Origin: Vicinamibacteraceae bacterium
Lineage (GTDB): Bacteria > Acidobacteriota > Vicinamibacteria > Vicinamibacterales > Vicinamibacteraceae
Assembly (NCBI GenBank): GCA_031407765.1
Contig: JANOIR010000077.1
Coordinates: 219 to 64,218, forward strand
Length of the DNA: 64,000 nucleotides
Reading direction: 5' to 3'
The position numbers and the translations under genes are program-made. Positions 3,860 to 64,000 of the stretch are shown piece after piece; position 1 is the first letter of the stretch, and every line of letters starts with the position of its first letter. Under the pieces are notes generated by a model. The model saw nothing but the letters and a program-made list of their open reading frames with translations, was not told the DNA's origin and searched no databases.

Positions 3860-3879
3860 GAACTCGGTATCCTAGCAAC

Positions 3880-6894: not shown

Positions 6895-7752
6895 GTGTTG
6901 GCGACTCTTCTTTTTTATCAGCGTCCAATACCGCTCAATTCCGACATTCACCGCAAGACTCGCCTCGGTCCGGCCCGCAACGATTTCAGCTTCTGCGCGC
7001 AGACGAATTCGATTCCGCTGGCCGCGGTGGAATTTTTCGATACCGCGCGCGAATACCCGATCGCCTTCACAGGCAGGGACGCCGGGCCGATGTTCCCGAT
7101 CGCGCTCGTCGGCGTGCGGCAGAACGAAAACCTGTTCGTCAACGCCGCAGGGCGCTGGGAGGGCCGCTACATCCCGGCCTTCGTGCGCCGCTATCCGTTC
7201 GTCCTCGCGGAGAAGCAGGACGCGGACGATTTCAACGTCTACCTCGACGAGGCCTACCCGGGCTTCGGCGCCGACCAGGGCGAGCGCCTGTTCACCGACG
7301 AGGGCGAGCACACGCCGCTGCTGAAGCAGGCGCTGGATTTTCTCAGCACTTACCAGGGCGAGATCAAGCGCACCCGGCTGTTCGTCGAGCGGCTCCAGTC
7401 GCTCGAGCTGCTGGTGCCGCGGGTGATGGAAGTGGTGCGCCCCGGCCAGCAGCCCATGGTGCTCGAAGGCTTCAGCGTGGTCGACGAGCAGCGGCTGCAG
7501 GCGCTCGATGACGCGAAGCTGCTGGAGCTGGCGCGCAGCGGCCTGCTCGCGTGGATCCACGCGCACCTGATGTCGCTTGCCAACGTCGCGCATCTCGCGG
7601 AGCGGCTGGATGGCGCGAAGCGCGGCGATGCAGGCAACGCACCGGCGGCCCGGCCGGCGGAGCAGGCGGCGCCTGCGGCGGCATCCAAGGAGAAGGCGAA
7701 GGAAAAAGACAAAGCGCGCGACACTCGAAGCAAGTCGGGCAAGGGCCGGTAG
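6895..7752 (+). CDS. SapC family protein
   Basis: 285 aa, GTG start preceded by a G-rich RBS. N-terminal LFYQRPIPLNSDIH...IPLAAVEFFDTAREYPIAF...YIPAFVRRYPF matches my recollection of the SapC (PF07277) consensus. The Lys/Ala/Glu-rich C-terminal tail is low complexity. Confidence 0.75.
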   Translation: MLATLLFYQRPIPLNSDIHRKTRLGPARNDFSFCAQTNSIPLAAVEFFDTAREYPIAFTGRDAGPMFPIALVGVRQNENLFVNAAGRWEGRYIPAFVRRYPFVLAEKQDADDFNVYLDEAYPGFGADQGERLFTDEGEHTPLLKQALDFLSTYQGEIKRTRLFVERLQSLELLVPRVMEVVRPGQQPMVLEGFSVVDEQRLQALDDAKLLELARSGLLAWIHAHLMSLANVAHLAERLDGAKRGDAGNAPAARPAEQAAPAAASKEKAKEKDKARDTRSKSGKGR

Positions 7753-48100: not shown

Positions 48101-51100
48101 TCGGGCGACACCAACGCCAACACCGGCACTCTCACCGCCACGACGCTGACCGGGCTCGACATGGCCTCGGTCGAGGAAATCCAGCTGGTGCGCGTGCAGG
48201 CCAAGTCGGGCACCTTCCGCCTCACTTACACGACGCCGAACGCGACGCCGCTGCCGGTTCCGGTGACCTTCACGCAGGCCGATTTCGCGACCGCGGGCGT
48301 CGCCGCGGGCAAGGTGCAGGCCGCGCTGCGCAGCCTGTACGACAACACGACCGACATTCTCGTATTCGAAGACAGCCGCGAGGCGCTGGACGACGGCGTG
48401 CACGCCGTGACCTACAGGGTGGTGTTCACCGGCAATCTCGCCGGCCGCAACATGGAAGAGATCATCTGGGGCGAGACGCGCGCGGCGGCGGCGGCGACGC
48501 TGCAGGCCTTCGCGGGCGAGTCGATCGACGTCGGCGTCACGACGCTGCGCCAGGGCACCCCGACGCCCGCGATCGGCAACGTGCAGACGGTGACCGTCAA
48601 CGGCGCCGGCAGCTTCACGCTTACGATCAATGTTCCGGTTCCTGGCGGCACCCCGCTGCAGACCACGCAGACCACTGCTTCGATCCTGGTCGGCGCCTCG
48701 GCGGACGAGGTGCTCAAGATCCTCGACCTTATCCTCAACCCGAACGGCTCTGTCCTCGATCCGCTGAACGATCGCAACGACAACTCGAAGCCATACACGA
48801 ACAACGTCGCCGTCACGAAGGTCGGCAACGTCTACACGATCGCATTCCAGGGCGAGCATCGCGCCAAGGCGATCGTCGCCACCACCGGCAGCGTCGAAGT
48901 CGCCACGCGCACCAGCGGCATCAACTACTACGGCCTCAATACCCTCAATGTGACGCTCGGCTCGGGCGCGGATATCTTCAACGTCCAGGGCACGAGCGCG
49001 ATCACCAACCTGAAGACCGCCGGCGGCAACGACCAGGTCTTCGTCTCCTCGAGCGCCAATGTGCAGACCGACAGCGTGGTGACGCTGCGCAGCGGCGATC
49101 CGGCGGTCCTGGGATACAGCCTGGCCGAAGCGGCCGTGTCGGTCGTCATCGAAGTCAGGAACTCGAGCGGCGCGGTCGTGAAGTCCTTCACCCTTGGCCA
49201 GACGGCGGCGGGCGCCTATTCGCAGGCCTGGGACGGAACCGACACCCTGGGGCAAGCGGTAGCCGCAGGCACCTACACCTACTCGGTGACTGGCGTGCGC
49301 TCGACTGGCGCGCTGACGCAGGCCTCCGGCGACACGCCCGCGCTGGCCTTCAGCCTGGCAGAGGCGGCGGATTCGGTCAGCGTCGTCGTGAAGGATGCGA
49401 CCGGAGCCGTGGTCAAGACCATCGCTCTGGGCGTTACTGCCATAGGCGCGCACGCGCCGGTATGGGACGGCACGAATGCGGCGGGGGTGCTGGCGCCCTC
49501 GGGCCGATACACCTACACGGTGACCGCTACGCGCGCCAACGCGACGACCTTCGCCGGAATTGTCTCGACGTTCGCCGGCGTCGCAACGACGGCCAACGTA
49601 TCCGGGTTCCTGGCCGGCAACACCTTCGCCTTCCGGGGCGAAGGGGGCCATGCGCCGGCGCTGACGTATGAACTGTCGGCTGGCGTTGCCCAGGCCCTGG
49701 TCAAAATCTACGACACGACCGGAACGCTGGTGCGCACCATGACGGTGAATTCGCCGGCTGCCGGAACGCACACCACCACCTGGGACGGCAAAAACGAGAC
49801 GAACCAGCGCCTTGCGGCCGGCACTTACACCTACCAGGTGACCAATGCGCTTGGCGCGATCATCGGCACCACCGCCATGAACGGCACGCTGGACGCGGTG
49901 AACGGCCTGCTTAATATTGACTCGGGCAGCGGCACGAACGCGCTGATGGTGAGCGACGCGGGCTCGCGCGCGCCCAACACGGCGACCCTGAGCAACAGCC
50001 AGATCCTCGGCCTTGCCTCGGCCAACATCAATTACGTGGCTACCGCGAGCGCGCGCAACCTCGCCGGCACCGTTGTCGACACGCTCGGCGCCACGGGAAC
50101 CTTCGCCGGCGGCATCACGGTGTGGAGCGGCTACGGCGTCGACAACGTGACGGTCGCCAGCACCCGCCTTGAGACCGACGCGACGAAGCGGACGATCACG
50201 ACCCTGAACACGGGGCTGGGCGGCGATACCGTCGCCGTGAGGCTGGACGCCGTTGCCGGCTTGCCGGGCGACGGGATCGCGGACGGATTCTTCGCGCTGA
50301 ACACGCAGGGGCCGTTCGACCACGATTTCCTCGTCGGCCCCGCGCTCGGCGCCGACGACGACAAGGTCGACGCCAGCCTGTCGTCGCTGCCGCTCGTCAT
50401 CTTCGGCGGCCAGGGCAAGGATGAGATCGTCGGCGGCAGCGGCAACGACATCATCTTCGGCGACCGCGGCCGCGTGGAGTACACCGATTCCAGCGGCGCG
50501 GTGGTGCAGGTGCTCGGCTGGGGCGGCCTGGGCGACAGGACCGACGGCCTCGTTCACCTGGGCGGCGTCGCTCGCTCGGTGAACCTCGAGGTGGGCGCGA
50601 ACGACTACATCGATGGCGGCGAAGGGCGCAACGTCGTGATCGGCGGCAAGAATGGCGGCGGCGCGCTGCTCCATGCGGCGGCCGGCAGCTACGACGGTGA
50701 CTACCTGTGGGTCGGATCCGGCAACGACGTCGTGCTGGGCGACAACGGCCGGGTAGCGTTCAACGCGGCCGGCGACGTAACGCGCCTGGAGACCACGGAC
50801 GTCGATGCCTCGACTGGCGGCAACGACACGATCCGCGCCGGCGAGGGGGACAACCGGATTCTCGGCGGGATGGGCGTCGACACGATCACAGTGGGCAGCG
50901 GGAAAGACGCCATTCTGGGCGACAACGGCTTCATGCAGATGGACGTCAACGGCGGCAATTTCGAGACAATCGCCACGAACTCGCTCGCCTCGACGGGCGG
51001 CAGCGCCACCAGCCTGGGCGACGCGGACATCATCACGGGCCAGGACGGCAAGAAGATCGTGCTGGGCGGCGACGGTGGCGACACGATCAAGCTGGGCGAT

Positions 51101-54100
51101 GGCACGGCCGGGGTGAACGAGCACATCGTGCTGGGCGACAACGGGGTGGTGACCTTCGTGCCGCTGAGCGCGGGCGTGGCTGGCGGCGCGGGCAAGGTCC
51201 TGAGCTACGAGACAACCGACACGGTGGCGGGCACGGGCGGCATCGACCGGATCACGCTGGGCGATGGCACGGCGACGATCCTGGGCGGGATGCACGGCGA
51301 CATCATCATCACCGACACCGGCACGACGGTCGGTGGCGACGGGGCGGACACGATCCTGGGCGACAACGGCCTGGTGCAGATGGACATCCAGGGCGGCAAC
51401 TACGCGCTGATCGAGACCAAGTCGCTGGCCTCGACCGATCCGACGAGCCTGATCACGAGCCTGGGCGGGGACGACCAGATCACCACGGGCGATGGCAAGA
51501 AGATCGTGCTGGGCGGCGACGGGTTCGACCAGGTGACGATGGGCGCGGGCGATCACATCGTGCTGGGCGACAACGGCATCGTGACGTTCGTGCCGCTCAG
51601 CGCGGGCGTGGCCGGTGGCGCGGGCAACGCGCAGAAGTTCGAGACGACGGACACGCTGGACATCAGCTCGGTCGGCGGCACGGGCGATCGGGACAACATC
51701 ACGATCACGGGCAACGGCAACAACACGATCCTGGGCGGCATGGGGGTCGACACGATCATCCTGCAGAGCAACGTCGCGGGCGGCGCGGACGTGGTGCTGG
51801 GCGACAACGGCGTGGTGGAGATGGACGCGAAGGGCGTGAACTTCGCGCAGGTCACGACCAAGTCGTTGACCTCGGCCGGTGGCGGGACGGCGGACCAGGG
51901 CGCGGGGGATATCATCACGGCGCTCGACGGCAAGAAGATCGTGCTGGGCGGCGATGGCGGGGACACGATCAGGCTGGGCGATGGCACGGCGGGGACGAAC
52001 GAGCACATCGTGCTGGGCGACAACGGCTCGGTGACGTTCGTGCCGATGCTCGATGGGCTGGGCAACCCGAGCGTCGGCGCGGGCAAGGCGCTGAGCTTCA
52101 AGACCACGGATACGGTGCAGGCGACCGGCGGCATTGACCGCATCACGGTGGGCGACGGTACGGCGACGATCCTGGGCGGGATGCACGGGGACTTCATCAC
52201 CATCGATACGGGCACGGCGCCGGGCGCAGACGGGGCCGACACCATCCTTGGCGACAACGGCCTCGTGCAGATGGACACCCAGGGCGGCAACTACGCCCAG
52301 ATCACGACCTACTCCCTGGACTCGGCGGGTGGTGGCGTGGATGAGCTGGGCGGCGCCGACCAGATCGTGACCGGCGACGGCGCGAAGACCATCCTCGCTG
52401 GCGACGGCGGTGACACAGTCACCATGGGCGAGGGCACTCATACCGTTCTGGGCGACAACGGCAGCATCGGCTACGTCGCCCTGGGCCAGACCGGCGCCGG
52501 GAACATCCTGACGATCGAGACCGCGGATACGCTTGCGGCCACCGGCGGCAACGACCAGATCAACTCCGCCAATGGCACCAACGTGATCCTCGCCGGCATG
52601 GGGGCCGACACGGTCACCACCGCCGACGGCAGCGACATGATCCTCGGCGACAACGGCAGCGTGCAGATGGACGCCGCCGGCCAGGTGTTCCGCCAAGTGG
52701 ACAGCACGGAGACGCTGCAGGGCACCGGCGACGCGATCACCGCTGGCAACGGCGCGAAGACCGTCGTGGCCGGTTTCGGCGACGACACGGTCGATGTCGG
52801 CACCGGCACGCACACGCTGCTCGGCGACAACGGCAGCCTCAGCTACGGCCCGACCGGCATCCTTTCGTACGTCACGACCACCGAGCCAACCCGGGGCGGC
52901 GATGACGCGATCGAAGCCGCCGGCGGCGATACGCTGGTCATCGCGGGCCTGGGAGACGACACCGTCACCACGGGCGCGGGCGTGGACGTGGTGGTGGGCG
53001 ACGACGGCCGGATGTCCTTCGACGCGGCCGGGCGCCCCGCGATGGTGGAATCCACCCAGCCCGGCATCGGCGGCACGGACACCATCCATTCGGGCGAAGG
53101 CAACAATGTCCTGATCGGCGGCTTCGGGCCCGACAGCCTGGTTTCGGGCGGCGGAGTCGACATGCTCATGGGCGACGGCGGCCGCGTCACCTACGCCGGC
53201 GGGGCGCTCTACCTGGTGGAGAGCATCGATTCCTTCATCGGTTCGAGCGACTTCCTCGATGGCGGCGCAGGCCAGAACGTCCTGATCGCCGGCGACGGCG
53301 ACGACGTGATGGTTGGCGACCTCACCAACGACATCCTCGCGGGCGATTACGCCGCCGTGACCTTTGACGCTTCCGGCCACGTGACGTCGGTGATGCGCTT
53401 CGGCGGCCTGGGCGACCTGATCGCGCAGGTGCAGGACAGCCTGTTCACCTACACGCGTCCCGACGACGCGGCAGCGGCGGACCCGCAGGTGTATCGCGGC
53501 AATCTCATCCTGATCGGCGACGCGGCGAGCGAGCTCCGGCGCCTGTACGTGCTTGGCGACTACCTGTCTCTGCCGGTCTTCTCCGGGTTCGATTTCGCGG
53601 CGGCCCAGGCCCAGCACCACAGCAGCTCGAGCGTGGCCTCCCAGCCGGCCTCCTCGGCGACCCCCGGCAGCGAGTCCGGAGCCCCCGCGAGCGAGCCGGG
53701 TGCCGCCCCTGCCGGCGAGGAAGGGCAGGGCGAGCAAGGCGGGCAAGGTCCGGCCGAAGGCGCGCAAGAGGGCACGCCGTCCGCGGCAACGTCGAATGAA
53801 TTCGGCGGCGACAGCACCGGCCTGCAGATACTGGAACTGCCGCAGGTCGAAGGGAACGCGGCCGGCAGCTTTACGCTCGGCACCACTGGCCAGTCGACGC
53901 GCGACCAGCCGACGCGAGACCAAGCGGATCGGCAGCAACTGGCGCTCGCCGGCCTGGTCGGCGCGCAGGCCTGGTATGGCCGCCGGCAGGAGAGTTCCGC
54001 GCCGCGCATGACGGGCGCCACGACGGCGACGTCCGCGGGCAACAGGGGCGCCTGGATCCGGCCCGCCGGAGAAGCCGCGGCCGCGGGCGAGGTCATGCTC

Positions 54101-54280: not shown

Positions 54281-54305
54281 GTCGCCGGCGGTACCCGGCG
54301 GCACA

Positions 54306-54335
54306 GGCGCCTCTCCAGGGCGCCACTTCTTCTTT
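54306..54335 (+). terminator. Weak candidate intrinsic terminator/attenuator after the giant ORF
   Basis: GGCGCC (54306-54311), 7-nt loop TCTCCAG, GGCGCC (54319-54324), followed by the T-rich but interrupted ACTTCTTCTTT. The stem is only 6 bp. Confidence 0.3.
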
Positions 54336-54361: not shown

Positions 54362-54697
54362 ATGGCCACCAAGAACCCCGCCTCGGGCGAAGCCTCTACG
54401 CTTGATACCGCGAAGCGCAACATCGATCCACAGAGAGTCGTCTGGGATGATTCGCGGCTGAACACCTCATACTCGAACGTCTGCAACGTTCTCGGCTCGC
54501 GCGAGGAGATCACGCTGCTGTTCGGCGCCAACCAGGCCTGGCATTCCGGCCAGAAGGAAGTAAAGGTCATGCTCTCGGACCGGATCATCCTCAACCCCTA
54601 TGCGGCCAAGCGGCTGCAGGCCCTGCTGCAGCGGGTCCTGAAGGAGTACGAAACCCGCTTCGGCGAACTGAAGATCGAGGGCTCAGCGCAGAGCTGA
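54362..54697 (+). CDS. Small DUF3467-like protein (111 aa)
   Basis: ATG preceded by AAGGAG at 54351-54356. The core YSNVCNVLGSREEITLLFG...VKVMLSDRIILNPYAAKRLQALLQRVLKEYETRFGEL resembles the DUF3467 consensus as I recall it. No signal peptide or TM segment. Confidence 0.6.
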   Translation: MATKNPASGEASTLDTAKRNIDPQRVVWDDSRLNTSYSNVCNVLGSREEITLLFGANQAWHSGQKEVKVMLSDRIILNPYAAKRLQALLQRVLKEYETRFGELKIEGSAQS

Positions 54698-54713
54698 TGC
54701 GCGAGGCTCAACC

Positions 54714-56558
54714 ATGCCGGGTTCCGCCCTCGAGGAAACCGCCTCCGCGCTGAGTGCCGGGGACGCGCTCTGGCGGCAGCATGCCGCGGCGCAGTCCTCG
54801 GATGCCTACCTCAGGAGCTGGCTCGCGCTGCAGTGCTCCATGGTCGCGGGCGCCGCGCGCGGCGTGCTGCTGCTCGGCGCCCCCGATGCGGGGCCCTATG
54901 CGCCGGCGGCATTCTGGCCGGCGGCGCAGAACGCGAGCCCGCTGCTGGCCGATATCTCCAGCCGCACGCTGGAGGCTCGCCGCGGCATCGCGATGCAGGG
55001 CGCTCCGTACGCGGCGGTGAGCTGTCCCCTGATCTTCGAAGGGCAGTTGCACGGCCTGGTGGCCGTCGAACTCGCGCCGCAGCCGGACGCCGCGCTGCAG
55101 GAGGTGGTGCGGCAGCTGCAGTGGGGCCTGTATGCGGTGGAATGCGCGTTGCGCGGCGAGCAAGCGCGCCACGAGCACGGGACGCGCGAGCGCCTCATGG
55201 CCACCCTCGACCTGGTGGCTTCCGCGCTCGCGGAGGACGGCTTCCAGGCCTCCGCCCAGGCGCTCGCGACCGACCTCGCGGTACGCCTGGATTGCGACCG
55301 GGTCAGCATCGGCTTCGAGCGCGACGGCCATGCCCGCGTCGTGGCCGTGTCGCACAGCGCCGAGTTCGGCGAGCGCATGAACCTGATCCGGGCGATCGGC
55401 ACCGCCATGGACGAGTCCCTGGACCAGAAATCCATCATCGTGCTGCCGCAGGGCGACGGCGAGGCGCTGGTGACGCGCGACCACGAGGCGCTGGCGCGGC
55501 TCTTCGGCAGCGGCAGCGTGCTCACGGTGCCTTTTTCCGTGGGAGAGACCACCAAGGGGGCGTTCAATTTCGAGCGCCCGGCGGGGCGCCCGTTCGAGGC
55601 CGACACGGTCGAGCTGACGCAGGCGGTGGTCGCGCTGGGCAGCCGCATCCTCGAGGAAAAGCGGCTGAACGACCGGCTGCTGGTGAGCCGCGTCAAGGAT
55701 ATCGCGCGCGAGCAACTGGAGAAATTCATCGGCCCGCGCCATTTCGGCCGCAAGCTTGCCGCGGCGCTCGTCATGCTTGCCGCGATCTTCTTCAGCTTCG
55801 CGACCGGCGAGCACCGCGTCGGGGCGAGCGCCGCGCTCGAGGGGGCGGTGCGCCGCGTCCTGGTGGCGCCCTTCGACGGCTACGTCGCGAGCGCGACGCA
55901 CCGCGCGGGCGACATCGTTCCGGCCGGAACCGTGCTGGCCAGCCTCGACCAGCGCGACCTGAAGCTCGAGTACTACAAGTGGGCGAGCCAGCAGAGCCAG
56001 TATGCGCGCCAGTACCAGGAAGCCATGGCCAAGCACGACCGTGCCCAGGCCAACATCCTGCTTGCGCAGGTGCAGCAGGCAGAGGCGCAGATGAACCTAC
56101 TTGCCGAGCACCTCGGCAGGGCGCAGATCACCGCGCCCTTCGAAGGTCTGGTGGTGAGCGGCGACCTGCACCAGTCGCTGGGCGCCTCGGTGAAGCGCGG
56201 CCAGACGCTGTTCGAGATTTCGCCCCTGAACGCCTTTCGCGTGGTGCTCGAGGTGGACGAGACGGACATCGACAGCGTGGCGACCGGGCAGAAGGGAGCC
56301 CTGCAGCTCAGTTCGATCCCCGGCGAAGTCTTTCCATTCACCGTCAGCCAGCTGACGCCGATCGTCGCATCGCGCGAGGGACGCAGCTATTTCCGCGTCG
56401 AGGCGCTGCTCGAGAGGGCGCCGGAGGGCGCCGCGGGGCGGCTGCGCCCCGGCATGGAGGGCGTCGCCAAGATCGAGGCCGGGCGCCGCAAGCTGATCTG
56501 GATCGGCACCCACAAGATGCTCGACTGGGCGCGGCTCACCCTTTGGTCCTGGCTCTAG
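54714..56558 (+). CDS. Tandem GAF-like domains + single TM + HlyD-type membrane fusion (periplasmic adaptor) protein
   Basis: 614 aa. The N-terminal ~330 aa contains two GAF-like units (LIFEGQLHGLVAVEL; RVSIGFERDGHARVVAVSHSAEF...VPFSVGETTKGAFNFER). TM helix LAAALVMLAAIFFSFA. Then lipoyl/coiled-coil/beta-barrel adaptor motifs (VLVAPFDGYVASATHRAGDIVPAGTVLASLD; ITAPFEGLVVSGD...VKRGQTLFEI; FRVVLEVDETDI). Confidence 0.8.
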   Translation: MPGSALEETASALSAGDALWRQHAAAQSSDAYLRSWLALQCSMVAGAARGVLLLGAPDAGPYAPAAFWPAAQNASPLLADISSRTLEARRGIAMQGAPYAAVSCPLIFEGQLHGLVAVELAPQPDAALQEVVRQLQWGLYAVECALRGEQARHEHGTRERLMATLDLVASALAEDGFQASAQALATDLAVRLDCDRVSIGFERDGHARVVAVSHSAEFGERMNLIRAIGTAMDESLDQKSIIVLPQGDGEALVTRDHEALARLFGSGSVLTVPFSVGETTKGAFNFERPAGRPFEADTVELTQAVVALGSRILEEKRLNDRLLVSRVKDIAREQLEKFIGPRHFGRKLAAALVMLAAIFFSFATGEHRVGASAALEGAVRRVLVAPFDGYVASATHRAGDIVPAGTVLASLDQRDLKLEYYKWASQQSQYARQYQEAMAKHDRAQANILLAQVQQAEAQMNLLAEHLGRAQITAPFEGLVVSGDLHQSLGASVKRGQTLFEISPLNAFRVVLEVDETDIDSVATGQKGALQLSSIPGEVFPFTVSQLTPIVASREGRSYFRVEALLERAPEGAAGRLRPGMEGVAKIEAGRRKLIWIGTHKMLDWARLTLWSWL

Positions 56559-56593
56559 GTTGAGATGAGGGTTCCCCGCGTGAGAAATCCGGC

Positions 56594-58744
56594 ATGAGCA
56601 GCCCGTCGCTGTTCAGCTCCTCCTGGTACCGGGTCGCGGGCCTTCGCCCTCGACTGCGCAGCCACGCGCAGGTCCACCGCCACGTGTACCGGGGCGCGGT
56701 GTGGTACGTGATGCAGAATCACACCACCGGCAAGTTTCACCGCTTTACCCCGATCGCCAACCTGATCATTGGCCTGATGGACGGCAAGCGCACGGTCCAG
56801 GAGATCTGGGACCTTGCCTGCGTGCGCCTCGGCGACGAGGTGCCCTCCCAGGACGAAGCCATCAAGCTGCTTGCGGACCTGCACGCCGCGGACGTCCTGC
56901 AGGGTGACGCGCCCCCCGACCTGAACGAACTGCAGCAGCGCCGGCGCAAGCACGTGCGCACGCGCTGGAAGCAGTATCTGGGCAATCCGCTGTCGATGCG
57001 TTTCCCGCTGTTCGATCCGGACTGGATGCTGCAGCGGCTGTTGCCGCTGCTCGCGCCGCTGTTCGGTCGGGTGGGCGCGCTGCTGTGGCTCGGGGTCGTC
57101 GGCTGCGCCCTTGTCCTGATCGCGATGCACTGGAGAGAACTCTCGAGCGACGTGGTCGACCGCGTATTCTCGGTGGAGAACCTGCTGCTCATCTGGATAG
57201 TTTTCCCGCTCATCAAGCTGCTGCACGAACTCGGACACGCGCTCGCGACCAAGGCCATCGGCGGTGAAGTGCATGAGATGGGCGTCATGCTGCTGGTGCT
57301 GATACCCATCCCGTACGTCGACGCCTCCGCCGCGACCGCGTTCCGCGACCGGCGCAGCCGCGCGCTGGTCGGTGCGGCCGGCATGATCGTGGAGCTTTTC
57401 ATCGCCGCCCTCGCGGTGTTCGCCTGGGTGCACCTCGAGCCTGGCATGGCCCGGGCGATCGCCTACGACGTGATCCTGGTCGCGGGCGTGTCGACGCTGC
57501 TGTTCAACGCCAATCCGCTGCTGCGCTACGACGGCTACTACATTCTCGCCGACAGCCTGGAGATCCCGAACCTCGGACAGCGCTCCAACGACTACCTGGG
57601 TTACCTGGTGAACCGGTACCTCTTCGGCGTCGAAGGCGGCACCTCGCCGATCGCCGCGCCGGGCGAGCGCGGCTGGTTCGTCGGTTACGCGATCGGCTCG
57701 TTCATCTATCGCATGTTCATGATGGTTTCGATCGCGGTGCTGGTGGCCACGCAGTTCTTCGTGCTGGGCGTGCTACTGGCCATCTGGGCCTGTGTCAGCA
57801 TGCTGCTGCTGCCCGTGGCGAAGAAGATCCATTACCTCTTCTACAGCCCGCGGCTCGCCAGCCACCGGCAGCGCGCGGTGCTGGTCAGCACCGGCGGCGT
57901 CGGCCTGCTTGTCGCTGCGCTGCTGTGGCTGCCCGCGCCCTCGTCCACGAGGGCCGAGGGCGTGATCTGGGCGCCGGAGCAGGCGCAGGTGCGCGCCACC
58001 GTCGACGGGTTCGTGACCAAGGTTCTCGCGAAGCCGGATCAGGCGGTGCGCGAGGGCGATGTCCTGATCGAAAGCCAGGATCCGGAGCTGTCCGCGCGCA
58101 CCGGCGTGCTGCAGGCGCAGCTCGCGGAGCTCGACGCGCGCTACTCGGCGGCGATCACCGGCAACCGGGTGCAGGCCGGGGTCATCAACGAGCAGCGAAC
58201 TCACGTGATGGAGGCGCTCGGCCTCGCGCAGCGACGCCAGGAGGACTTGCTGGTGCGCAGCCCCGGCAACGGACTATTCGTGATCCAGGACCCGCAGAAC
58301 CTGCCCGGCCGCTATGCCCAGCGCGGAGAGGTGCTCGCCTACGTCACCGATCGGGCAGCCCGTTCCGTGCGCGTGGTGGTGTCCCAGTCCGAGGGCGCGC
58401 TCGTCAGCAAGCGCACCGAGCGCGTGGAGATCCGCCCGGCCGACCGCGTGAGCCGGCCGATCCAGGCGCGCATCGAGCGCGAAGTGCCCGCGGCGACGGA
58501 CGAATTGCCCAGCATGACGCTCAGCCTGCAGGGCGGCGGCAAGATCGGGCTCGATCCGGCCCGGCCGGGCGACGGCAGATCGCTGGAGAAGCTGTTCGTG
58601 CTGGACCTCGAGCTGCCGCAGGGCGAGCAGACGAACTACCTCGGCGGACGCGTCTACGTGCGCTTCGAGCATGAGCCCGAGCCGCTTGCCAGCCAGTGGT
58701 ACCGCGACCTGCGGCGCGCTTTCCTGAAGAAGTTCAATGTCTGA
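56594..58744 (+). CDS. PqqD-like (RRE-like) N-terminal domain + M50/site-2-protease-type membrane metalloprotease + C-terminal HlyD-type adaptor domain
   Basis: 716 aa. HELGH at 57224-57238 within a hydrophobic segment. Second S2P motif NANPLLRYDGYY at 57506-57541. Multiple TM helices. N-terminal FHRFTPIANLIIGLMDGKRTVQEIWDLACVRLGDEVPSQDEAIKLLADLHAADVL resembles PqqD/RiPP-recognition elements. C-terminal VRATVDGFVTKVLAKPDQAVREGDVLIESQDPEL plus coiled coil resembles the HlyD lipoyl/hairpin region. Confidence 0.8.
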   Translation: MSSPSLFSSSWYRVAGLRPRLRSHAQVHRHVYRGAVWYVMQNHTTGKFHRFTPIANLIIGLMDGKRTVQEIWDLACVRLGDEVPSQDEAIKLLADLHAADVLQGDAPPDLNELQQRRRKHVRTRWKQYLGNPLSMRFPLFDPDWMLQRLLPLLAPLFGRVGALLWLGVVGCALVLIAMHWRELSSDVVDRVFSVENLLLIWIVFPLIKLLHELGHALATKAIGGEVHEMGVMLLVLIPIPYVDASAATAFRDRRSRALVGAAGMIVELFIAALAVFAWVHLEPGMARAIAYDVILVAGVSTLLFNANPLLRYDGYYILADSLEIPNLGQRSNDYLGYLVNRYLFGVEGGTSPIAAPGERGWFVGYAIGSFIYRMFMMVSIAVLVATQFFVLGVLLAIWACVSMLLLPVAKKIHYLFYSPRLASHRQRAVLVSTGGVGLLVAALLWLPAPSSTRAEGVIWAPEQAQVRATVDGFVTKVLAKPDQAVREGDVLIESQDPELSARTGVLQAQLAELDARYSAAITGNRVQAGVINEQRTHVMEALGLAQRRQEDLLVRSPGNGLFVIQDPQNLPGRYAQRGEVLAYVTDRAARSVRVVVSQSEGALVSKRTERVEIRPADRVSRPIQARIEREVPAATDELPSMTLSLQGGGKIGLDPARPGDGRSLEKLFVLDLELPQGEQTNYLGGRVYVRFEHEPEPLASQWYRDLRRAFLKKFNV

Positions 58745-60731
58745 CGTACTCGCCGCGCCGCGCGCCTTCGACGAGCTCTACGCCGAGCGGCGCGAGCTGG
58801 CCGGCGAGCAATGGCTGGACCGCGCCGGCACGGCCGTCGCCGGACGCCTGACGCGCGCGATGCGCGCGCGTCCAGCGCGCGTCGATTTCATCGTCGGCGC
58901 GGTGGCCGCGGTCGAGGCGCGCTACCGCGGGCTGGACGTCGCCCGGCTCGCCGAAGAGGCGCGCGAGCTCAAGCGCCGGCTGCGGCGGGACGGTTTGCGC
59001 GATGCGCTGGTGGCGGAGGCCTTCGCGCTGGTGCGCGAAGCCTCGGACCGCGTTCTGGGCATGCGCCACTTCGACGTGCAGCTGAAGGGCGCCTGGATCA
59101 TGCTGAACGGCATGGTCGCCGAGATGCAGACCGGCGAGGGCAAGACGCTGACCGCCACGCTGGCCGCCTGCACGGCGGCGCTGGCGGGTATCCCGGTGCA
59201 CGTGGTCACCGTCAACGACTATCTCGTGGCGCGGGACTGCGAGACGCTGCGGCCGGTCTACGAGGCGCTCGGCATCACGGTGGCGGCGGCGACCGAGGAA
59301 ATGACGCCGCAGGAGCGCCGGGCGTCATACGCCTGCGACGTCGCGTATTGCACCAATAAGACCCTGGTGTTCGATTACCTGCGCGACCGGATACTGCTGG
59401 CGACGGGCGCGAGCACGCTGCACCTGCGGCTGGAGAAGATCTACGGGCCGGATTCCCGCAGCCGCCGCCTGCACCTGCGCGGCCTGCATTTCGCGATCGT
59501 CGACGAGGCCGACAGCGTGCTGATCGACGAGGCCCGCACCCCGCTCATCATTTCCGCGGAAGTGCCGCCGGGCGACGAGGCGGCAGTGGCTGCGCAGGCC
59601 CTGGCGATCGCCCGGGGCCTGGCGCTCGGCGCGGATTTCGTCATCGTCATCGCCGAGCGCAGGGTCGCGCTGACCGAGACGGGCCACGCAAAGGTGGTCG
59701 AACTGTGCAAGGAACTGGGCGGCGTCTGGGCGGGCTCGCTCAGGCGCGAGGAACTGGTCACTCAGGCGCTGAGCGCGCTGCACCTGTTCCTGCGCGACGA
59801 CCACTACGTGGTGCGCGAGGGCAAGATCCAGGTCGTCGACGAGCACACCGGGCGGGTGATGGCCGACCGCTCCTGGGGCCAGGGACTGCACCAGTTGATC
59901 GAGGCGAAGGAGGGCTGCGAGATCACGCCGCGCAAGGAAACGCTCGCCAAGATCAGCTACCAGCGGTTTTTCCGGCGCTACCTTCACCTGTCCGGGATGA
60001 CCGGTACCGGTTCCGAGGTGGCCGGGGAACTCGGGTCGGTCTACGGCCTGCCGGTGGTGCGCGTCCCGACGCACCGGCCCGGCCGGCGCCTGCGCGAGGT
60101 GGATCGCATCTTCGAGACGGAAGAAGAGAAATGGAATCGCATCGCGGAACGGGTCGCCGAGCTGCACGCCAAGGGCGTGCCGATCCTGCTGGGCACGCGT
60201 TCGGTGGCGTCCTCCGAGATCGCGAGCCGGCTGCTCGAGCAGCGCGGCCTCGCGCACCGCGTGCTGAACGCCAAGCAGGACGAGGAAGAGGCGCAGATCG
60301 TCGAGCGCGCGGGCGAGGCGGGCGCGATCACGATCGCGACCAACATGGCGGGCCGCGGCACCGACATCAAGCTCGCGCCAGGCGTCGCCGAACTGGGCGG
60401 GCTGCACGTGATTCTGTCGGAGCGGCACGAGGCCGGGCGCATCGATCGCCAGCTGGAAGGGCGCTGTTCCCGCCAGGGGGATCCGGGGCACTTCGAGGCC
60501 ATCATTTCCCTCGAGGACCCGGTGCTCGAGCCCTACCGCGGGGGCCTGCCGGAACTGCTGATGCGCCGGCTCGCCGCGCTCAGGCCCGGCGCGGCCCAGG
60601 AAGTGAAGCGGCGCTGGATCCGACTCGCCCAGCTGCGCACCGAACGCGCGCAGTCGAAGGTGCGCCGCAATCTGCTGAAGACCGACAAGCAGACTGGCGA
60701 TATCCTCTCGTTCTCCGGCAGGCCGGAATGA
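58737..60731 (+). CDS. SecA-family ATPase paralogue, C-terminally shortened (664 aa)
   Basis: SecA motor signatures: MRHFDVQL, Walker A MQTGEGKTL (59124-59150), VVTVNDYLA/V, IVDEADSVLIDEARTPLIIS (about 59495), YQRFFRRY..LSGMTGTG, TNMAGRGTDIKL (about 60338-60374), GGLHVILSERHEAGRIDRQLEGRCSRQGDPG. Only about 100 aa follow the last motor motif, whereas several hundred follow in housekeeping SecA. The start overlaps the upstream stop (ATGTCTGA). Confidence 0.85.
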   Translation: MSDVLAAPRAFDELYAERRELAGEQWLDRAGTAVAGRLTRAMRARPARVDFIVGAVAAVEARYRGLDVARLAEEARELKRRLRRDGLRDALVAEAFALVREASDRVLGMRHFDVQLKGAWIMLNGMVAEMQTGEGKTLTATLAACTAALAGIPVHVVTVNDYLVARDCETLRPVYEALGITVAAATEEMTPQERRASYACDVAYCTNKTLVFDYLRDRILLATGASTLHLRLEKIYGPDSRSRRLHLRGLHFAIVDEADSVLIDEARTPLIISAEVPPGDEAAVAAQALAIARGLALGADFVIVIAERRVALTETGHAKVVELCKELGGVWAGSLRREELVTQALSALHLFLRDDHYVVREGKIQVVDEHTGRVMADRSWGQGLHQLIEAKEGCEITPRKETLAKISYQRFFRRYLHLSGMTGTGSEVAGELGSVYGLPVVRVPTHRPGRRLREVDRIFETEEEKWNRIAERVAELHAKGVPILLGTRSVASSEIASRLLEQRGLAHRVLNAKQDEEEAQIVERAGEAGAITIATNMAGRGTDIKLAPGVAELGGLHVILSERHEAGRIDRQLEGRCSRQGDPGHFEAIISLEDPVLEPYRGGLPELLMRRLAALRPGAAQEVKRRWIRLAQLRTERAQSKVRRNLLKTDKQTGDILSFSGRPE

Positions 60732-60747
60732 ATTCAGGAGCAGATCA

Positions 60748-61566
60748 ATGAACCGTGGGACCGCCCTTTTCCTGCTTGCGTCGCTTGCAGCAGCCGTTTC
60801 TCCTGCGAACGCCCAGGCCCCGCAGCGTCCCGCTGCGCTCAAACCGGAGGCGGTCCCGTTCACCCCGGTGCGTCCGCCGATGGCCAGCGGCAACGCCGGC
60901 AAGCAATTCGGCGATGACATGGATTGCCTGGTGGAGCCGCACATCGTCACAAGCGTCGGAAGCCCCGTGGAAGGCACACTCGCGGAAGTGCTCGTGGACC
61001 GGGGCTCGCTCGTCTCCAGGGGACAGGTCGTCGCCCGCTTGAACTCGAAAGTGGAGGAGGCCACAGTCAACCTGAAGGCGGCGCAGGAGGATTTCGGCAA
61101 GCGCAAGGTGGACCGCAACGAGGAGCTTTACAAGAAGCAGCTCATCTCCGCCAACGAGAAGGACGAACTGGAGACGCAGACGCGCATCGCGGGCCTGGAG
61201 CTGCAGCAGCAAAGGCAGGTGCTGGAGCAGCGCACCATCCGCAGCCCTTTGAACGGCGTCGTGGTCGAGCGCATGCTCAGCCCGGGCGAGCGCGTCGGCG
61301 ACGGCAAGATCGTGAAGATCGCCCAGATCGACCCGCTGAACGTGGAGGTCGTCGCGCCGGTGGAGATGTTCGGCCGGGTGAAGCCCGGCATGGCGGGCGA
61401 AGTCCGCTTCCAGCCGCTGCTGCAGGGGACCTTCAAGGCGACCGTGACGGTCGTCGACCGTGTCGTGGACGCGGCCAGCGGCACCTTTGGCGTACGCCTG
61501 CGGCTGCCCAATCCGAACAGCACGGTGCCGGCCGGCATCAAGTGCAGCGTCCGATTCCTCAAGTAG
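60748..61566 (+). CDS. Periplasmic adaptor (membrane fusion protein, RND/MFP family) with a cleavable signal peptide
   Basis: 272 aa. AGGAG RBS at 60737-60741. Signal peptide MNRGTALFLLASLAAAVSPANA/QAP. Lipoyl-like VGSPVEGTLAEVLVDRGSLVSRGQVVARLNS. Coiled-coil hairpin. IRSPLNGVVVERMLSPGERV. Beta-barrel segment VEVVAPVEMFGRVKPGMAGEVRF...ASGTFGVRLRLPN. Confidence 0.8.
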   Translation: MNRGTALFLLASLAAAVSPANAQAPQRPAALKPEAVPFTPVRPPMASGNAGKQFGDDMDCLVEPHIVTSVGSPVEGTLAEVLVDRGSLVSRGQVVARLNSKVEEATVNLKAAQEDFGKRKVDRNEELYKKQLISANEKDELETQTRIAGLELQQQRQVLEQRTIRSPLNGVVVERMLSPGERVGDGKIVKIAQIDPLNVEVVAPVEMFGRVKPGMAGEVRFQPLLQGTFKATVTVVDRVVDAASGTFGVRLRLPNPNSTVPAGIKCSVRFLK

Positions 61567-61637
61567 CGGGCGACGGCGGCAGGCTGCTCGGGCTGCTGCG
61601 CGGCCAGCGTTTCGAGGGCTTTGAGAAATCCTTCAAG

Positions 61638-62339
61638 ATGGCGCGCGGGTCGCTGCTCGCGGAGCGTGTGCTGTTCGGCGTGCCGCGCGCGGGCGCGGAT
61701 CCGGCGAGTCTCGCAGGCGTTTGCCGAGCGCTCGCGATGCCTGAGCCGTACCTTGCCGCCTTCGAGGGAGGCCTCGCGGAGGCCGACACCGTGCACTTCG
61801 GCTTCGAAGCGGGAGAGGGCCTGCTGTACAAGGTTTACCTGGAGTACGCGCGCCGATACCACGGCGCGCCTCGGGGCGGGCCGCCGGTCGTGCTGCACCA
61901 CGCCTACAAGTGGGACGCGTCGGATCCGCGCCGCCGTGCGGTCGCGCGCTACGAATGCTTTCCAGGCCTGCCGGCAGCCGGCATCCGTGCGCGGCTGGCT
62001 GCGCTATATGGCCATCGGGGCGCGCCCTCGCAGGCCGCCGCGTGCGCCGCGCTCGACCTTGCCGGCCGGCGCAGCGTCAAGCCGCTGATGTACCTGGAGG
62101 TCGCGGAAGAGGGCAATCCCCGCGCATCGTTCGACCTCAACCTGCATCCGGCCGACCTCCGCGTGGCCGACCTGGAGGCCGGGTTGCGGGAACTGCAGCA
62201 GCGCTATGCCATCGCCGAGGACGCGTTCGAGCCGGTGTGGGAGAACGTCCGTGGGCAGGCGCTCGGCCACGTCGCCGGCGGCACGAGCCGCGGGGGCGGC
62301 GATTTCTTCACCGTCTACCACGGCGTCGGGGCGCCTTGA
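61638..62339 (+). CDS. Hypothetical protein (233 aa from ATG 61638; in-frame CTG at 61584 also possible)
   Basis: This is the downstream part of track ORF 60924..62339, which overlaps the adaptor gene in another frame before 61566. Coding-type GC3 bias. No recognised family. Ends ...GGTSRGGGDFFTVYHGVGAP. Confidence 0.55.
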   Translation: MARGSLLAERVLFGVPRAGADPASLAGVCRALAMPEPYLAAFEGGLAEADTVHFGFEAGEGLLYKVYLEYARRYHGAPRGGPPVVLHHAYKWDASDPRRRAVARYECFPGLPAAGIRARLAALYGHRGAPSQAAACAALDLAGRRSVKPLMYLEVAEEGNPRASFDLNLHPADLRVADLEAGLRELQQRYAIAEDAFEPVWENVRGQALGHVAGGTSRGGGDFFTVYHGVGAP

Positions 62340-62911
62340 ATCCCTTCGTTGTGGCGGTCGCCGGGCCGATCGGCGCGGGCAAGTCGACGCTCGTGCGTGG
62401 TCTCGCCGCGCGCCTGCCCCAGGCCGCGGCAATCTACATGGACGACTACGAGCAGTTCACCAGACAGCCGCTCGACGAGGTGCGCCGCTGGCTGCGCGAA
62501 GGGGCCGATCCCAACCGGCTGCCCATCCCCGGCCTCGCCGAGAAGCTGGCGGCCCTGAAGAGCGGGCCGGACCGCTTCCTCGTCTTCGAGACGCAGTTCG
62601 GCCGCACGCACGCCGCGACTGCCTGCCATATCGACTTCCTCGTCTGGATCGACCTGCCGCTGGAGTTCGCGCATGCGCGCAAGCTCGCGCAAATGGGGGC
62701 TGCGGCCGACGTCCGAGATCCGGCCGGTGCTGCGGATTTCCTCGCCTGGATCACCGGCTACGAGGCGAGCTACGCCGACGTGGTTGAGCCTGCGCTGCGC
62801 ATTCAGCGCGAGACCGTGCGCGCCGGCGCGGATCTCGTGGTCGATGGCGTGCGCAAGCCCGCGGTGCTCCTCTCGCAGATCGAATCCGCCGTGCTCGCCG
62901 GGCGTCGCTAG
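62336..62911 (+). CDS. P-loop NTPase / nucleoside-kinase-like protein (uridine kinase-like fold)
   Basis: This is the downstream part of track ORF 61910..62911. TTG 62336 (TTGA overlap with the upstream stop) or GTG 62351 as start. Walker A VAVAGPIGAGKSTLV directly at the N-terminus. IYMDDY and a DFLVWIDLPLE (Walker-B-like) segment, as in small P-loop kinases. Confidence 0.65.
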   Translation: MNPFVVAVAGPIGAGKSTLVRGLAARLPQAAAIYMDDYEQFTRQPLDEVRRWLREGADPNRLPIPGLAEKLAALKSGPDRFLVFETQFGRTHAATACHIDFLVWIDLPLEFAHARKLAQMGAAADVRDPAGAADFLAWITGYEASYADVVEPALRIQRETVRAGADLVVDGVRKPAVLLSQIESAVLAGRR

Positions 62912-62990
62912 GCGCAGGCCTTGATCGTGGTCAAGGCCGGACGCGGGCCGGCTCTCTCACAATGCGTCGTCCAAAATTGGGGAGCACCGC

Positions 62991-64000
62991 ATGGCGTCCG
63001 ATATCGAGATCGCACAGGCTGCGAAGATGCAGCGCATTTCCAAGGTGGCGCTGGAAAAGCTCGGCATCGCCGAAGAGCACCTTGAGCCTTACGGCCACTA
63101 CAAGGCCAAGGTCTCGCTGCCGTTTCTCGATACCCTGAAGTCGAAGAAGAACGGCAAGCTGATCCTGGTGACCGCGATCAGCCCGACGCCCGCGGGCGAG
63201 GGCAAGACCACCACCACCGTGGGCCTGGGCGACGCGCTGAACCACATCGGCAAGAAGGCGATCATCTGCCTGCGCGAGCCCTCGCTCGGGCCCGTGTTCG
63301 GCGTGAAGGGCGGCGCCGCCGGCGGCGGCTACGCGCAGATCGTGCCGATGGAGGACATCAACCTGCACTTCACCGGCGACTTCGGCGCGATCCAGCTCGC
63401 GAACAACCTGCTCGCCGCGCTGATCGACAACCATATCAGCCACGGCAACGAACTCGGCATCGACGTGCGCCGCATCCAATGGAAGCGCGTGCTCGACATG
63501 AACGACCGCGCGCTGCGCGACATCACCGTGGGTCTGGGCGGCACCGCCAACGGCTATCCCCGGCAGGATGGCTTCGACATCGTGGTCGCCTCCGAGGTGA
63601 TGGCGATCTTCTGCCTCGCCACCTCGCTGGAGGACCTGAAGAAGCGCCTCGGCAACATCGTGGTGGGCTATACGCGCGAGCAGAAACCGGTCACGGCGAA
63701 GGACCTGAAGGGACACGGCGCCATGACGGTGCTGCTGAAGGACGCGCTGGCGCCCAACCTCGTGCAGACGCTGGAGAACAACCCCGCGTTCGTGCACGGC
63801 GGCCCCTTCGCCAACATCGCGCACGGCTGCAATTCGGTGCTCGCCACGCAGAGTGCGCTAAAGCTGGCCGACTACGTGGTGACCGAGGCGGGCTTCGGCG
63901 CCGATCTTGGCGCGGAGAAATTCCTCGATATCAAGTGCCGCAAGACCGGCCTGATGCCGAGCGCCGCGGTGATCGTGGCGACCATGCGGGCGCTCAAGTA
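62991..64000 (+). CDS. fhs: Formate--tetrahydrofolate ligase (N-terminal 336 aa; 3' end outside the window)
   Basis: Not in the ORF track because no stop is reached. Manual translation from ATG 62991 (GGGGAG RBS 62979-62984) gives [20 protein letters not shown]...[25 protein letters not shown]...[38 protein letters not shown], the classic FTHFS signatures. Confidence 0.9.

Follow-up and report, generated by a model that had tools for sequence, protein, structure and literature searches.

The DNA considered here is a 64,000-nt stretch of contig JANOIR010000077.1 (positions 219 to 64,218 of the forward strand; GenBank assembly GCA_031407765.1) from a Vicinamibacteraceae bacterium. This whole stretch is referred to below as the window, and all coordinates are positions within it. 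The analysis concerns a cluster of seven genes at 54362–62911 whose products include a truncated SecA paralogue, three adaptors of the HlyD (membrane-fusion protein, MFP) type and a protease of family M50. The SecA-like, M50 and HlyD-type genes are termed the module. Immediately upstream of the cluster is the gene for a giant repeat protein, the proposed cargo of the module, which bears an N-terminal LEPR-XLL leader.

Gene content of the locus

Seven co-directional open reading frames (ORFs) on the plus strand fill the interval 54362–62911 in the ORF list of the window, with intergenic distances of 16, 35, −8, 16, 71 and −4 nt. The overlap between the genes for the M50-HlyD fusion and the SecA-like protein is ATGTCTGA (58737–58744, 8 nt), that between unkA and the P-loop kinase-like gene is TTGA (62336–62339, 4 nt), and AGGAG sites are situated 5′ of the starts of the DUF3467 gene (54362) and the periplasmic HlyD gene (60748). 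This layout, with its coordinates, spacing, overlaps and AGGAG sites, is as described in a first-pass annotation of the DNA, and the assignments made there for the DUF3467, HlyD-type, SecA-like, signal-peptide-bearing and P-loop kinase-like products held in profile searches. The tolC homologue that was placed immediately upstream of the giant ORF was likewise confirmed; its start codon is GTG and overlaps the SapC stop codon. A scan for operon signals revealed no promoter-like sites, and two terminator-like hairpins were found in the region, which is below chance expectation. The features of the locus are collected in Table 1.

Table 1. Positions of the genes and of the leader discussed in the text, in order along the window. 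Numbers preceded by L denote individual loci of the survey described below.
Feature	Position	Strand	Basis
O-methyltransferase (accessory 'maturation' cassette)	3880–4911	+	Methyltransf_2, 72 bits; orthologues beside the module in L001, L002, L045, L079
unkB, 284-aa unknown (accessory cassette)	4908–5762	+	shares loci with the radical SAM gene: L001, L002, L033, L045, L079
Radical SAM enzyme, peptide-maturase-like (accessory cassette)	5749–6741	+	Radical_SAM, 63 bits
SapC-family protein	6895–7752	+	PF07277 SapC, 242.6 bits
TolC-family outer-membrane channel	7752–9104	+	TIGR01844, 315 bits (cut-off 225)
Giant 15,052-aa repeat protein, proposed cargo	9122–54280	+	DUF4347, 170.9 bits; RTX repeats (HemolysinCabind)
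N-terminal LEPR-XLL leader, residues 35–56, proposed targeting and cleavage signal	9224–9289	+	NF012209, 27.6 bits (cut-off 17)
DUF3467 small cytosolic protein	54362–54697	+	PF11950, 84.9 bits (gathering threshold 25); no transmembrane segment
GAF(-GAF?)-transmembrane-HlyD inner-membrane adaptor (GAF-HlyD)	54714–56558	+	GAF, 40.6 bits; HlyD_3, 73 bits
PqqD-like/M50 (site-2-protease type)/HlyD fusion (M50-HlyD)	56594–58744	+	PqqD, 23.6 bits; HExxH; NPLLRFDGY invariant
Truncated SecA paralogue, 664 aa: NBD1, PPXD, NBD2, scaffold-helix start (SecA-like)	58737–60731	+	Pfam matches
Signal-peptide-bearing periplasmic HlyD/MFP adaptor	60748–61566	+	RND_mfp, 113.8 bits (cut-off 94.9); N-terminus MNRGTALFLLASLAAAVSPANA
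unkA, 233-aa unknown	61638–62339	+	no family; accessory cassette rather than core
P-loop nucleoside/nucleotide-kinase-like protein (accessory cassette)	62336–62911	+	weak: PRK08233, 65 bits (cut-off 198); AAA families

The absence of an ATP-binding cassette (ABC) transporter from these 64 kb had also been claimed. A six-frame scan of the window for Walker A, LSGGQ and Walker B motifs detected none, and every non-giant ORF in the window has another, non-ABC assignment, so that the claim stands. No SecY-like gene was found within the window.

Conservation of the module

One genome per species was taken for a survey of related loci, which yielded 80 loci from alpha-, beta-, gamma- and deltaproteobacteria, Nitrospira, Myxococcota and others; the proteins of the window were mapped wherever the flanking sequence sufficed. 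The GAF-HlyD gene is situated directly upstream of the M50-HlyD gene in 70 of 70 loci, the SecA-like gene is directly downstream of M50-HlyD in 65 of 68, and a periplasmic HlyD is present in 53 of 62. The SecA-like, M50-HlyD and GAF-HlyD trio named in the first-pass annotation thus co-occurs across genomes. By tblastn, at least 26 of 67 loci, drawn from several classes, have a DUF3467 gene immediately before GAF-HlyD, a figure that is a lower bound. Identical gene order in more than 80 loci of different classes and phyla indicates that the arrangement is not the product of chance. A motif scan of 84 loci revealed five ABC-like ORFs, all small and none within the core. The closest homologues of the module proteins, at 74–75% identity, bear Sulfuritalea/Rhodocyclaceae names, which by themselves would point to a related betaproteobacterium as the probable source.

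Large genes accompany the module. In Actimicrobium, Polaromonas and a metagenomic contig, a giant protein (9,292–15,258 aa) is followed by DUF3467, GAF-HlyD, M50-HlyD, the SecA-like protein and HlyD, and in two of these three the methyltransferase/orphan/radical SAM trio comes next. Most of the full 10-kb upstream flanks consist of one open-ended plus-strand ORF of more than 2,300 aa; in other loci the giant is downstream. An adjacent ORF of at least 1,500 aa was present in at least 31 of the 37 fully flanked loci (29 by filter, together with L074 and L082, which the filter missed). SapC is encoded within 10 kb of the module in approximately 14 of 84 loci, and beside LEPR-bearing giants in Alisedimentitalea and Chlorochromatium, while TolC is encoded within the operon in Methylosinus, Thalassospira and Azospirillum, as well as in L049, L062, L065 and L083. 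The ties to giant DUF4347 genes, TolC and SapC seen in the window recur in other genomes.

Judged from its gene content, the locus is one copy of a conserved module consisting of a secondary SecA_DEAD protein, three HlyD-type adaptors and an M50 protease. It had been stated in the first-pass annotation that no system of this composition was described. That statement has to be withdrawn: Kamneva, Poudel & Ward (PLoS One 2015; PMC4452313) reported SecA_DEAD proteins co-encoded with GAF-, Peptidase_M50- and HlyD/Biotin_lipoyl-containing proteins, and sometimes OEP, noted the absence of an ABC transporter, and proposed that SecA_DEAD supplies the ATPase activity while passage through the membrane is provided by M50. 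Both the composition and the secretion hypothesis were thus published in 2015, on the basis of work in silico, without experiment, in which the biological role was described as 'completely unknown'. These authors also observed canonical SecA elsewhere in module-bearing genomes. Their module, for example META1p2402–2399 of M. extorquens AM1, has the same four core genes in the same order and no ABC transporter, and its distinguishing characters are all present in the window, namely SecA_DEAD without scaffold or wing, three HlyD-type partners and no ABC gene in the locus. No substrate, DUF3467, SapC, PqqD-like domain or LEPR-XLL is mentioned in that paper; the link to a cargo and the SecA-less variants described below are added here. 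Nothing functional on DUF3467, DUF4347 or LEPR-XLL (LEPRxLL) was found in the literature, nor was any paper found that ties the LEPR-XLL motif to the SecA/M50/MFP module.

The M50-HlyD fusion, the adaptors and the DUF3467 protein

The M50-HlyD protein of the window matches Peptidase_M50 at only 20 bits, and all 34 of 34 homologues (37–57% identity) match that family. The HExxH motif (H211, E212 and H215) and residues N305, N307, P308, L309 and D313 are invariant in those 34 homologues. With HExxH, a third-ligand motif of the NxxPxxxxDG type and multiple hydrophobic segments over residues 149–448, the protein has the characters of the M50/site-2 protease type. PqqD is matched by 16 of the 34 homologues (best E value 6e–8). 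These results uphold the earlier assignment of an M50 protease with a PqqD-like N-terminus, the PqqD match of the window protein itself being marginal. The PqqD-like domain is located before the first transmembrane segment and is probably cytoplasmic. There are, in addition, partial matches to daptide_HExxH (NF041824; 160 bits versus a cut-off of 300) and to YydH/LiaK. The family is a large one, with 4,515 clusters at 50% identity and E ≤ 1e–30, almost all of approximately 715 aa, and its members carry public names such as 'PqqD family protein', 'biotin/lipoyl-binding protein' and 'efflux RND adaptor'.

Matches to HlyD_3/HlyD_D23 were obtained for three proteins of the cluster, which represent its three adaptors. 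GAF-HlyD has a GAF domain at residues 180–308 and one hydrophobic segment at 344–366. A tandem GAF had been proposed for this protein; the domain just mentioned was verified, and the putative first GAF gave a weak match (GAF_2, 17.2 bits) that is under the gathering threshold.

The DUF3467 protein is possibly an adaptor or a chaperone. AlphaFold2 models reached a mean confidence (predicted local distance difference test, pLDDT) of 40 from the single sequence and of 54 with a shallow alignment of 55 sequences. A Foldseek search with the latter model returned only noise at E > 1, and a profile search of PDB sequences returned nothing relevant. Comparison by hhalign with an E. coli SecB sequence entered by hand returned a probability of less than 1%, and the sole resemblance was a 16-residue 'ILxPYAxxxL' stretch.

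The truncated SecA paralogue

The SecA-like protein yields Pfam matches to SecA_DEAD (340 bits), SecA_PP_bind (85 bits) and P-loop_SecA (181 bits), and is approximately 42% identical to the SecA proteins of E. coli and B. subtilis. It resembles housekeeping SecA, and SecA2 of Gram-positives and mycobacteria, in its nucleotide-binding domains (NBD1 and NBD2), its preprotein cross-linking domain (PPXD) and its Walker A, DEAD and arginine-finger motifs. The alignment is confined to residues 18–599 of B. subtilis SecA, in accordance with the C-terminal shortening noted in the first-pass annotation. Nothing is present beyond the start of the scaffold helix, and the wing domain, the two-helix finger (IRA1) and the C-terminal tail are missing. 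The wing domain and two-helix finger are the parts of SecA that are used with SecY. No SecA or SecA2 model of NCBIfam (four of them for SecA2) is matched at or above its cut-off; for the housekeeping model NF009538, the score is 612.6 bits and the cut-off 814.

This truncation is not peculiar to the window. In 67 of 67 loci the protein stops at one common point, to within a single residue, and the ATPase motifs are kept: GEGKT in 67, DE[AV]D in 68 and GRGTD in 62 of 70 sequences. The SecA-like protein is a conserved and probably active truncated motor and not a decayed copy, and the earlier view of it as a paralogue distinct from the housekeeping SecA is sustained.

Membership of the accessory SecA2 class was considered and is out, given the scores below the SecA2 cut-offs and the lack of SecY2/Asp genes. 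Copies of the SecA-like gene occur on plasmids, and some public records misname the product as 'prepilin peptidase' (Methylosinus and Pseudosulfitobacter; L085, 22213–24129) or 'DEAD/DEAH box helicase'.

The giant protein and its LEPR-XLL leader

Near its N-terminus (residues 35–56), the giant protein reads ...RRKAMFEALEQRFMLSAE..., and it conforms to NF012209 (LEPR-XLL), an N-terminal motif of some 24 residues borne by very long proteins. All loci (approximately 1.4 Mb) were translated in six frames and scanned for this motif, initially by regular expression and subsequently by a small hidden Markov model (HMM) derived from the initial matches, and matches were counted as N-terminal if they lay fewer than 120 residues from the upstream stop. 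In 13 loci, the window among them, the HMM matched the N-terminus of a large ORF next to the module. It had no matches elsewhere in these translations, and the same scan revealed no small ORF with the leader motif. With four plasmids added to the 13 scanned loci, the motif is present in 17 of the 17 loci in which the N-terminus of the adjacent large ORF is visible.

The four plasmids, which are annotated, contribute the following cases. On pMSC49a of Methylosinus, an 8,847-aa giant with TLEPRVLLNAD is followed, in order, by DUF3467, GAF-HlyD, a 'PqqD family protein', the SecA-like protein, HlyD and TolC. On the Alisedimentitalea plasmid, the motif EQLEPRLLLAAD is situated immediately 5′ of the mis-annotated start of the giant gene, and SapC is divergent and adjacent. 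The cargo on Thalassospira pCSC3H3 is annotated as 'LEPR-XLL domain-containing protein', and that on p2 of Azospirillum brasilense Sp7 carries MALEPRFMFDA. The consensus of the leader is a basic stretch followed, after a few residues, by phi-phi-E-x-L-E-P-R-phi-L-phi-S-A-D; read directly, it is not a signal peptide of the Sec or Tat type. The position of the cargo gene varies (upstream or downstream of the module), as does the size of the product (approximately 700 to over 15,000 aa), which points to a functional link, one made to the tag and not to size or inherited synteny. As a side observation, the start of the Alisedimentitalea giant gene has been called too far downstream, so that the leader is lost from the annotated protein (L088, 1725–1830).

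The C-termini of the cargo proteins are heterogeneous, and only short motifs recur in them. A search of the cargo for a conserved C-terminal secretion signal showed ends that are little conserved except for the short [IV]xW[GS] motif, present in 14 of 34. In the first-pass annotation, giant DUF4347/RTX proteins were taken to be normally type I cargo; in light of the conserved N-terminal leader, a classical type I substrate with a C-terminal signal is not the best view of this one.

Concerning the recurring motifs themselves, [IV][DNESR]W[GSDTA] is found within 100 residues of the C-terminus in 14 of the 34 giants next to the module, as against 0.035 occurrences per 100 aa in their bodies. The copy in the window, RIEWGDKSD, is 8 residues from the C-terminus (54150–54280), and the other loci are L001, L002, L004, L010, L014, L016, L021, L042, L043, L047, L059, L078 and L083. 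A second motif, W[LV]xDF[LV]N...RNPN, recurs in six other giants. These motifs may be functional elements of the cargo.

SecA-less variants and the minimal core

Not all LEPR-XLL cargo genes are accompanied by a SecA-like gene. The operons of Thalassospira (L089, Thalassospira marina pCSC3H3), L060, L067 and L074 encode LEPR cargo, GAF/TM-HlyD (TM, transmembrane), M50-HlyD and HlyD, and sometimes DUF3467 and TolC. The Azospirillum type (L090, Azospirillum brasilense Sp7 p2; 30% identity) encodes TolC, two GAF-free HlyD proteins and M50-HlyD beside a LEPR/DUF4347 protein, with no DUF3467. No SecA-like gene was found in the operon of any of these five.

It follows that the SecA-like protein is not an obligatory component in cis, and the earlier argument that it is the only possible motor is weakened. 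In the loci compared, the evolutionary core is M50-MFP, two MFPs, TolC and LEPR cargo; the SecA-like protein, DUF3467, GAF and the PqqD-like domain are traits of the dominant clade, to which the window belongs. In the SecA-less variants, the ATPase may be encoded elsewhere, or may not be strictly required; unlinked copies were noted by Kamneva et al. (PMC4452313).

Relation to other export systems

Two preprints bear on the cargo and the motor. West-Roberts et al. (2023 preprint) described giant proteins of Omnitrophota and actinobacteria in which SecA_DEAD and preprotein-binding domains are fused in cis, and proposed that these serve the proteins' own export. The truncated SecA unit is the one seen here, likewise devoid of scaffold and wing, but it resides inside the giant polypeptide, and an M50/MFP/TolC module was not reported. 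The Chlorochromatium preprint concerns two giant symbiosis proteins with an N-terminal LEPRxLL, flanked by sapC and tolC, which 'lack known signals'. These giants were shown experimentally to be exported and transferred to the partner cell, and a periplasmic waiting state that lasts until the partner is contacted was reported for them; elsewhere in the genome there is a laterally acquired secA. In the sapC-giant-tolC-giant locus of Chlorobium chlorochromatii, SapC and TolC are thus encoded beside an exported giant, as they are beside the putative cargo in the window, and the authors invoke a sap-like type I secretion system (T1SS). Neither preprint links its facts to the SecA/M50/MFP module. 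The sapCDEF locus of Campylobacter fetus also has SapC and TolC/SapF homologues beside an exported large protein, comparable to those beside the putative cargo here. Secretion of the C. fetus S-layer protein uses the ABC transporter SapD and the MFP SapE.

Canonical T1SSs (HlyB-HlyD-TolC; LapB-LapC-LapE) share with the locus an MFP, TolC and a very large RTX cargo with no Sec signal peptide. The window differs in its three adaptors (two of them fused), its conserved signal at the N-terminus instead of (only) the C-terminus, its SecA-type ATPase and its intramembrane metalloprotease. Membership of the canonical T1SS class was rejected: MFP and TolC are present, but a HlyB-type ABC protein is absent from the 64-kb window.

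The peptidase-containing ABC transporters (PCATs; colicin V CvaAB-TolC and bacteriocin exporters) resemble the module in the way it would work, in that a leader is read by a protease within the inner-membrane exporter and cut as the cargo passes through MFP and TolC, although they are not homologues. In the window, M50 and PqqD-like domains take the place of C39, a SecA-type protein that of the ABC protein, and the cargo is of 10^3–10^4 residues. The proteases of ribosomally synthesized and post-translationally modified peptide (RiPP) pathways (daptide MpaP-type, YydH/LiaK) have a PqqD-like N-terminus, a polytopic HExxH protease and a short leader motif in common with M50-HlyD, which differs in its fusion to an MFP domain and in having a giant protein as the putative substrate.

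A proposed role in export of LEPR-XLL proteins

We incline, with modest confidence, to the view that the module is a dedicated export and processing machine for its LEPR-XLL neighbour, and have less confidence in any individual step. Such a machine is most likely ABC-less and TolC-dependent, and addressed by the N-terminal leader of the cargo. The domain calls, the absence of an ABC transporter and the co-occurrence of the genes, on which the first-pass interpretation was built, survive in this view; its novelty does not, its case for a sole motor is weakened and its type of cargo is not the preferred one.

The export function and the following scheme we infer from the composition, synteny, conserved catalytic motifs, lack of ABC genes and link between cargo and leader documented above. 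PCAT transporters and PqqD-type recognition elements furnish the analogy for docking and cleavage of a leader. While the cargo is nascent or unfolded, its basic/LEPR-XLL leader would dock on the cytoplasmic PqqD-like domain (of the RiPP-recognition-element type) of M50-HlyD. The truncated SecA, with its two NBDs and clamp, would hold the chain and feed it N-terminus-first at the expense of ATP, perhaps assisted by DUF3467. M50-HlyD and GAF-HlyD could provide the entry into the inner membrane with their transmembrane parts, a periplasmic tube made of the three adaptor paralogues would lead on to TolC, the M50 active site would remove the leader, and the GAF domain may gate export. Outside the cell, Ca2+-dependent folding of the RTX repeats would act as a ratchet and help to draw the chain out. 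Such a ratchet is established for the classical T1SS, and by analogy extracellular Ca2+ folding probably helps export here as well. Targeting by the N-terminus would remove the need to finish and store a 1.5-MDa unfolded chain prior to export; a classical T1SS, which reads a C-terminal signal, must wait for the complete chain.

A broader proposal is made tentatively, and we would not put it forward as the probable outcome: that diderms possess a separate, unnamed secretion pathway for which LEPR-XLL serves as the N-terminal address, in which an ABC-independent conduit of M50-MFP, two more MFPs and TolC is fed by a truncated SecA (with DUF3467) in most lineages and the intramembrane protease cuts off the leader. 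Giants would enter this pathway N-terminus-first, possibly during translation. The consistent association with LEPR-XLL and the definition of a minimal core appear to be new here.

Several observations weigh against an export machine of this kind. Most of the operon is barely expressed in M. extorquens AM1 (PMC4452313), and neither a follow-up to the 2015 study nor an experiment on any member of the module was found in the literature. The PqqD score of the window protein, obtained with its isolated N-terminus, exceeds the gathering threshold of 23.4 bits only marginally. A SecB-like chaperone role for DUF3467 received no support. Towards its C-terminus the giant protein bears RTX repeats, as do classical T1SS substrates, and the SecA-less operons with LEPR cargo must be counted here too. 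Finally, we know of no M50 protease that has ever been shown to be a protein-conducting channel.

In a rival model, export occurs in two steps or the module is involved only in processing. The giant would then cross the inner membrane via SecYEG, with the SecA paralogue, or via a distant T1SS ABC transporter that reads a C-terminal signal. The M50/MFP/GAF proteins would act on the leader only, in maturation or in periplasmic retention and release of the LapG/LapD-LapA kind, with handover to TolC from the periplasm. The C-terminal RTX repeats are consistent with this model, as are the enrichment of [IV]xW[GS] in cargo C-termini (14 of 34) over bodies (0.035 per 100 aa), the retention of M50-MFP, MFPs and TolC in the SecA-less variants, and the periplasmic waiting state of the Chlorochromatium LEPRxLL giants; a GAF sensor on an adaptor would also suit regulated gating. 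We nevertheless regard it as unlikely. No ABC transporter is linked to the module in 84 loci or in the window, the SecA paralogue is devoid of the wing domain and two-helix finger through which SecA works with SecY, and the leader is unlike a Sec or Tat signal peptide. The PqqD-like domain, moreover, is probably cytoplasmic, which points to recognition before export and not after it.

It is very improbable that what the module matures and exports is small, whether a RiPP-like peptide or a metabolite from the accessory cassette, and that regulation or history accounts for the proximity of the giant gene. RiPP clusters are indeed typified by PqqD-like domains and HExxH intramembrane proteases, genes for a radical SAM enzyme, an O-methyltransferase and a 2-oxoglutarate (2OG)-oxygenase are found close by, and HlyD/TolC systems export small molecules as well. 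The maturase cassette, however, is present in few loci, whereas a large LEPR-XLL ORF is nearly universal; there is no small ORF with the leader motif, and a SecA-type motor with a preprotein clamp would not be expected. That the 664-aa protein is a housekeeping or redundant SecA and its adjacency meaningless is excluded for practical purposes, despite scores of approximately 600 bits to SecA models and its identity to the E. coli and B. subtilis proteins, since it falls under every equivalog cut-off, ends at B. subtilis residue 599 with the same truncation point in 67 of 67 loci, follows M50-HlyD in 65 of 68, occurs on plasmids and coexists with canonical SecA elsewhere in module genomes (PMC4452313).

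Accessory genes and surroundings of the module

A cassette of accessory genes accompanies the module in some alpha- and betaproteobacterial loci (L001, L002, L033, L045 and L079). Its members are the O-methyltransferase, unkB, the radical SAM enzyme, unkA and the P-loop kinase-like protein, joined at times by a 2OG-Fe oxygenase. The window has one part of the cassette on each side of the giant gene (1686–6741 and 61638–62911). The top NCBIfam hits of the radical SAM enzyme are partial matches to HxsC-type and SPASM maturases, all under cut-off, and its orthologues in five other loci are 56–72% identical. No Pfam or NCBIfam family was found for unkB in profile searches. Homologues of unkA are present only in L004, L033, L045 and L079, where they adjoin the radical SAM/unkB genes, and those of the P-loop kinase-like protein are present in L001, L002, L004, L032 and L079. 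The cassette might modify the cargo or its leader.

Between the stop codon of the giant gene (54280) and the start of DUF3467 (54362) is a GC-rich hairpin with a T-rich tail (54306–54324), which could attenuate read-through into the module. Antisense to the giant gene (9122–54280) are a minus-strand ORF of 4,466 aa (40904–54304) and several of 1,000–2,300 aa. Their translations are Arg/Ala/Gly-rich low-complexity sequence, and they are almost certainly not genes in their own right but shadow ORFs that a repetitive, GC-rich gene produces. A plus-strand ORF at 2384–3526 has no family match and a 36% tblastn match in L079; for the overlapping interval 2339–3859, a short public contig of identical sequence is annotated with a minus-strand gene. 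The two ends of the window are occupied by genes of one-carbon metabolism, namely formate dehydrogenase alpha (14–1675, cut by the left edge) and formate-tetrahydrofolate ligase (62988–64000, cut by the right edge).

Implications

The export of bacterial proteins of 5,000–36,000 residues is largely unexplained. The module is found in thousands of genomes, including those of cultivable and genetically tractable bacteria, and its tie to an easily mutated N-terminal tag makes the in-silico idea of 2015 directly testable. There is a benefit for annotation as well, since the SecA paralogue is misnamed in public records and mis-called gene starts can remove the leader. The tie to the tag also suggests a new use for a SecA motor, apart from SecYEG, and a role in transport for a site-2-type protease. 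A LEPR-XLL pathway, if true, would explain how proteins of 10,000–36,000 residues leave the cell, the Chlorochromatium symbiosis proteins among them.

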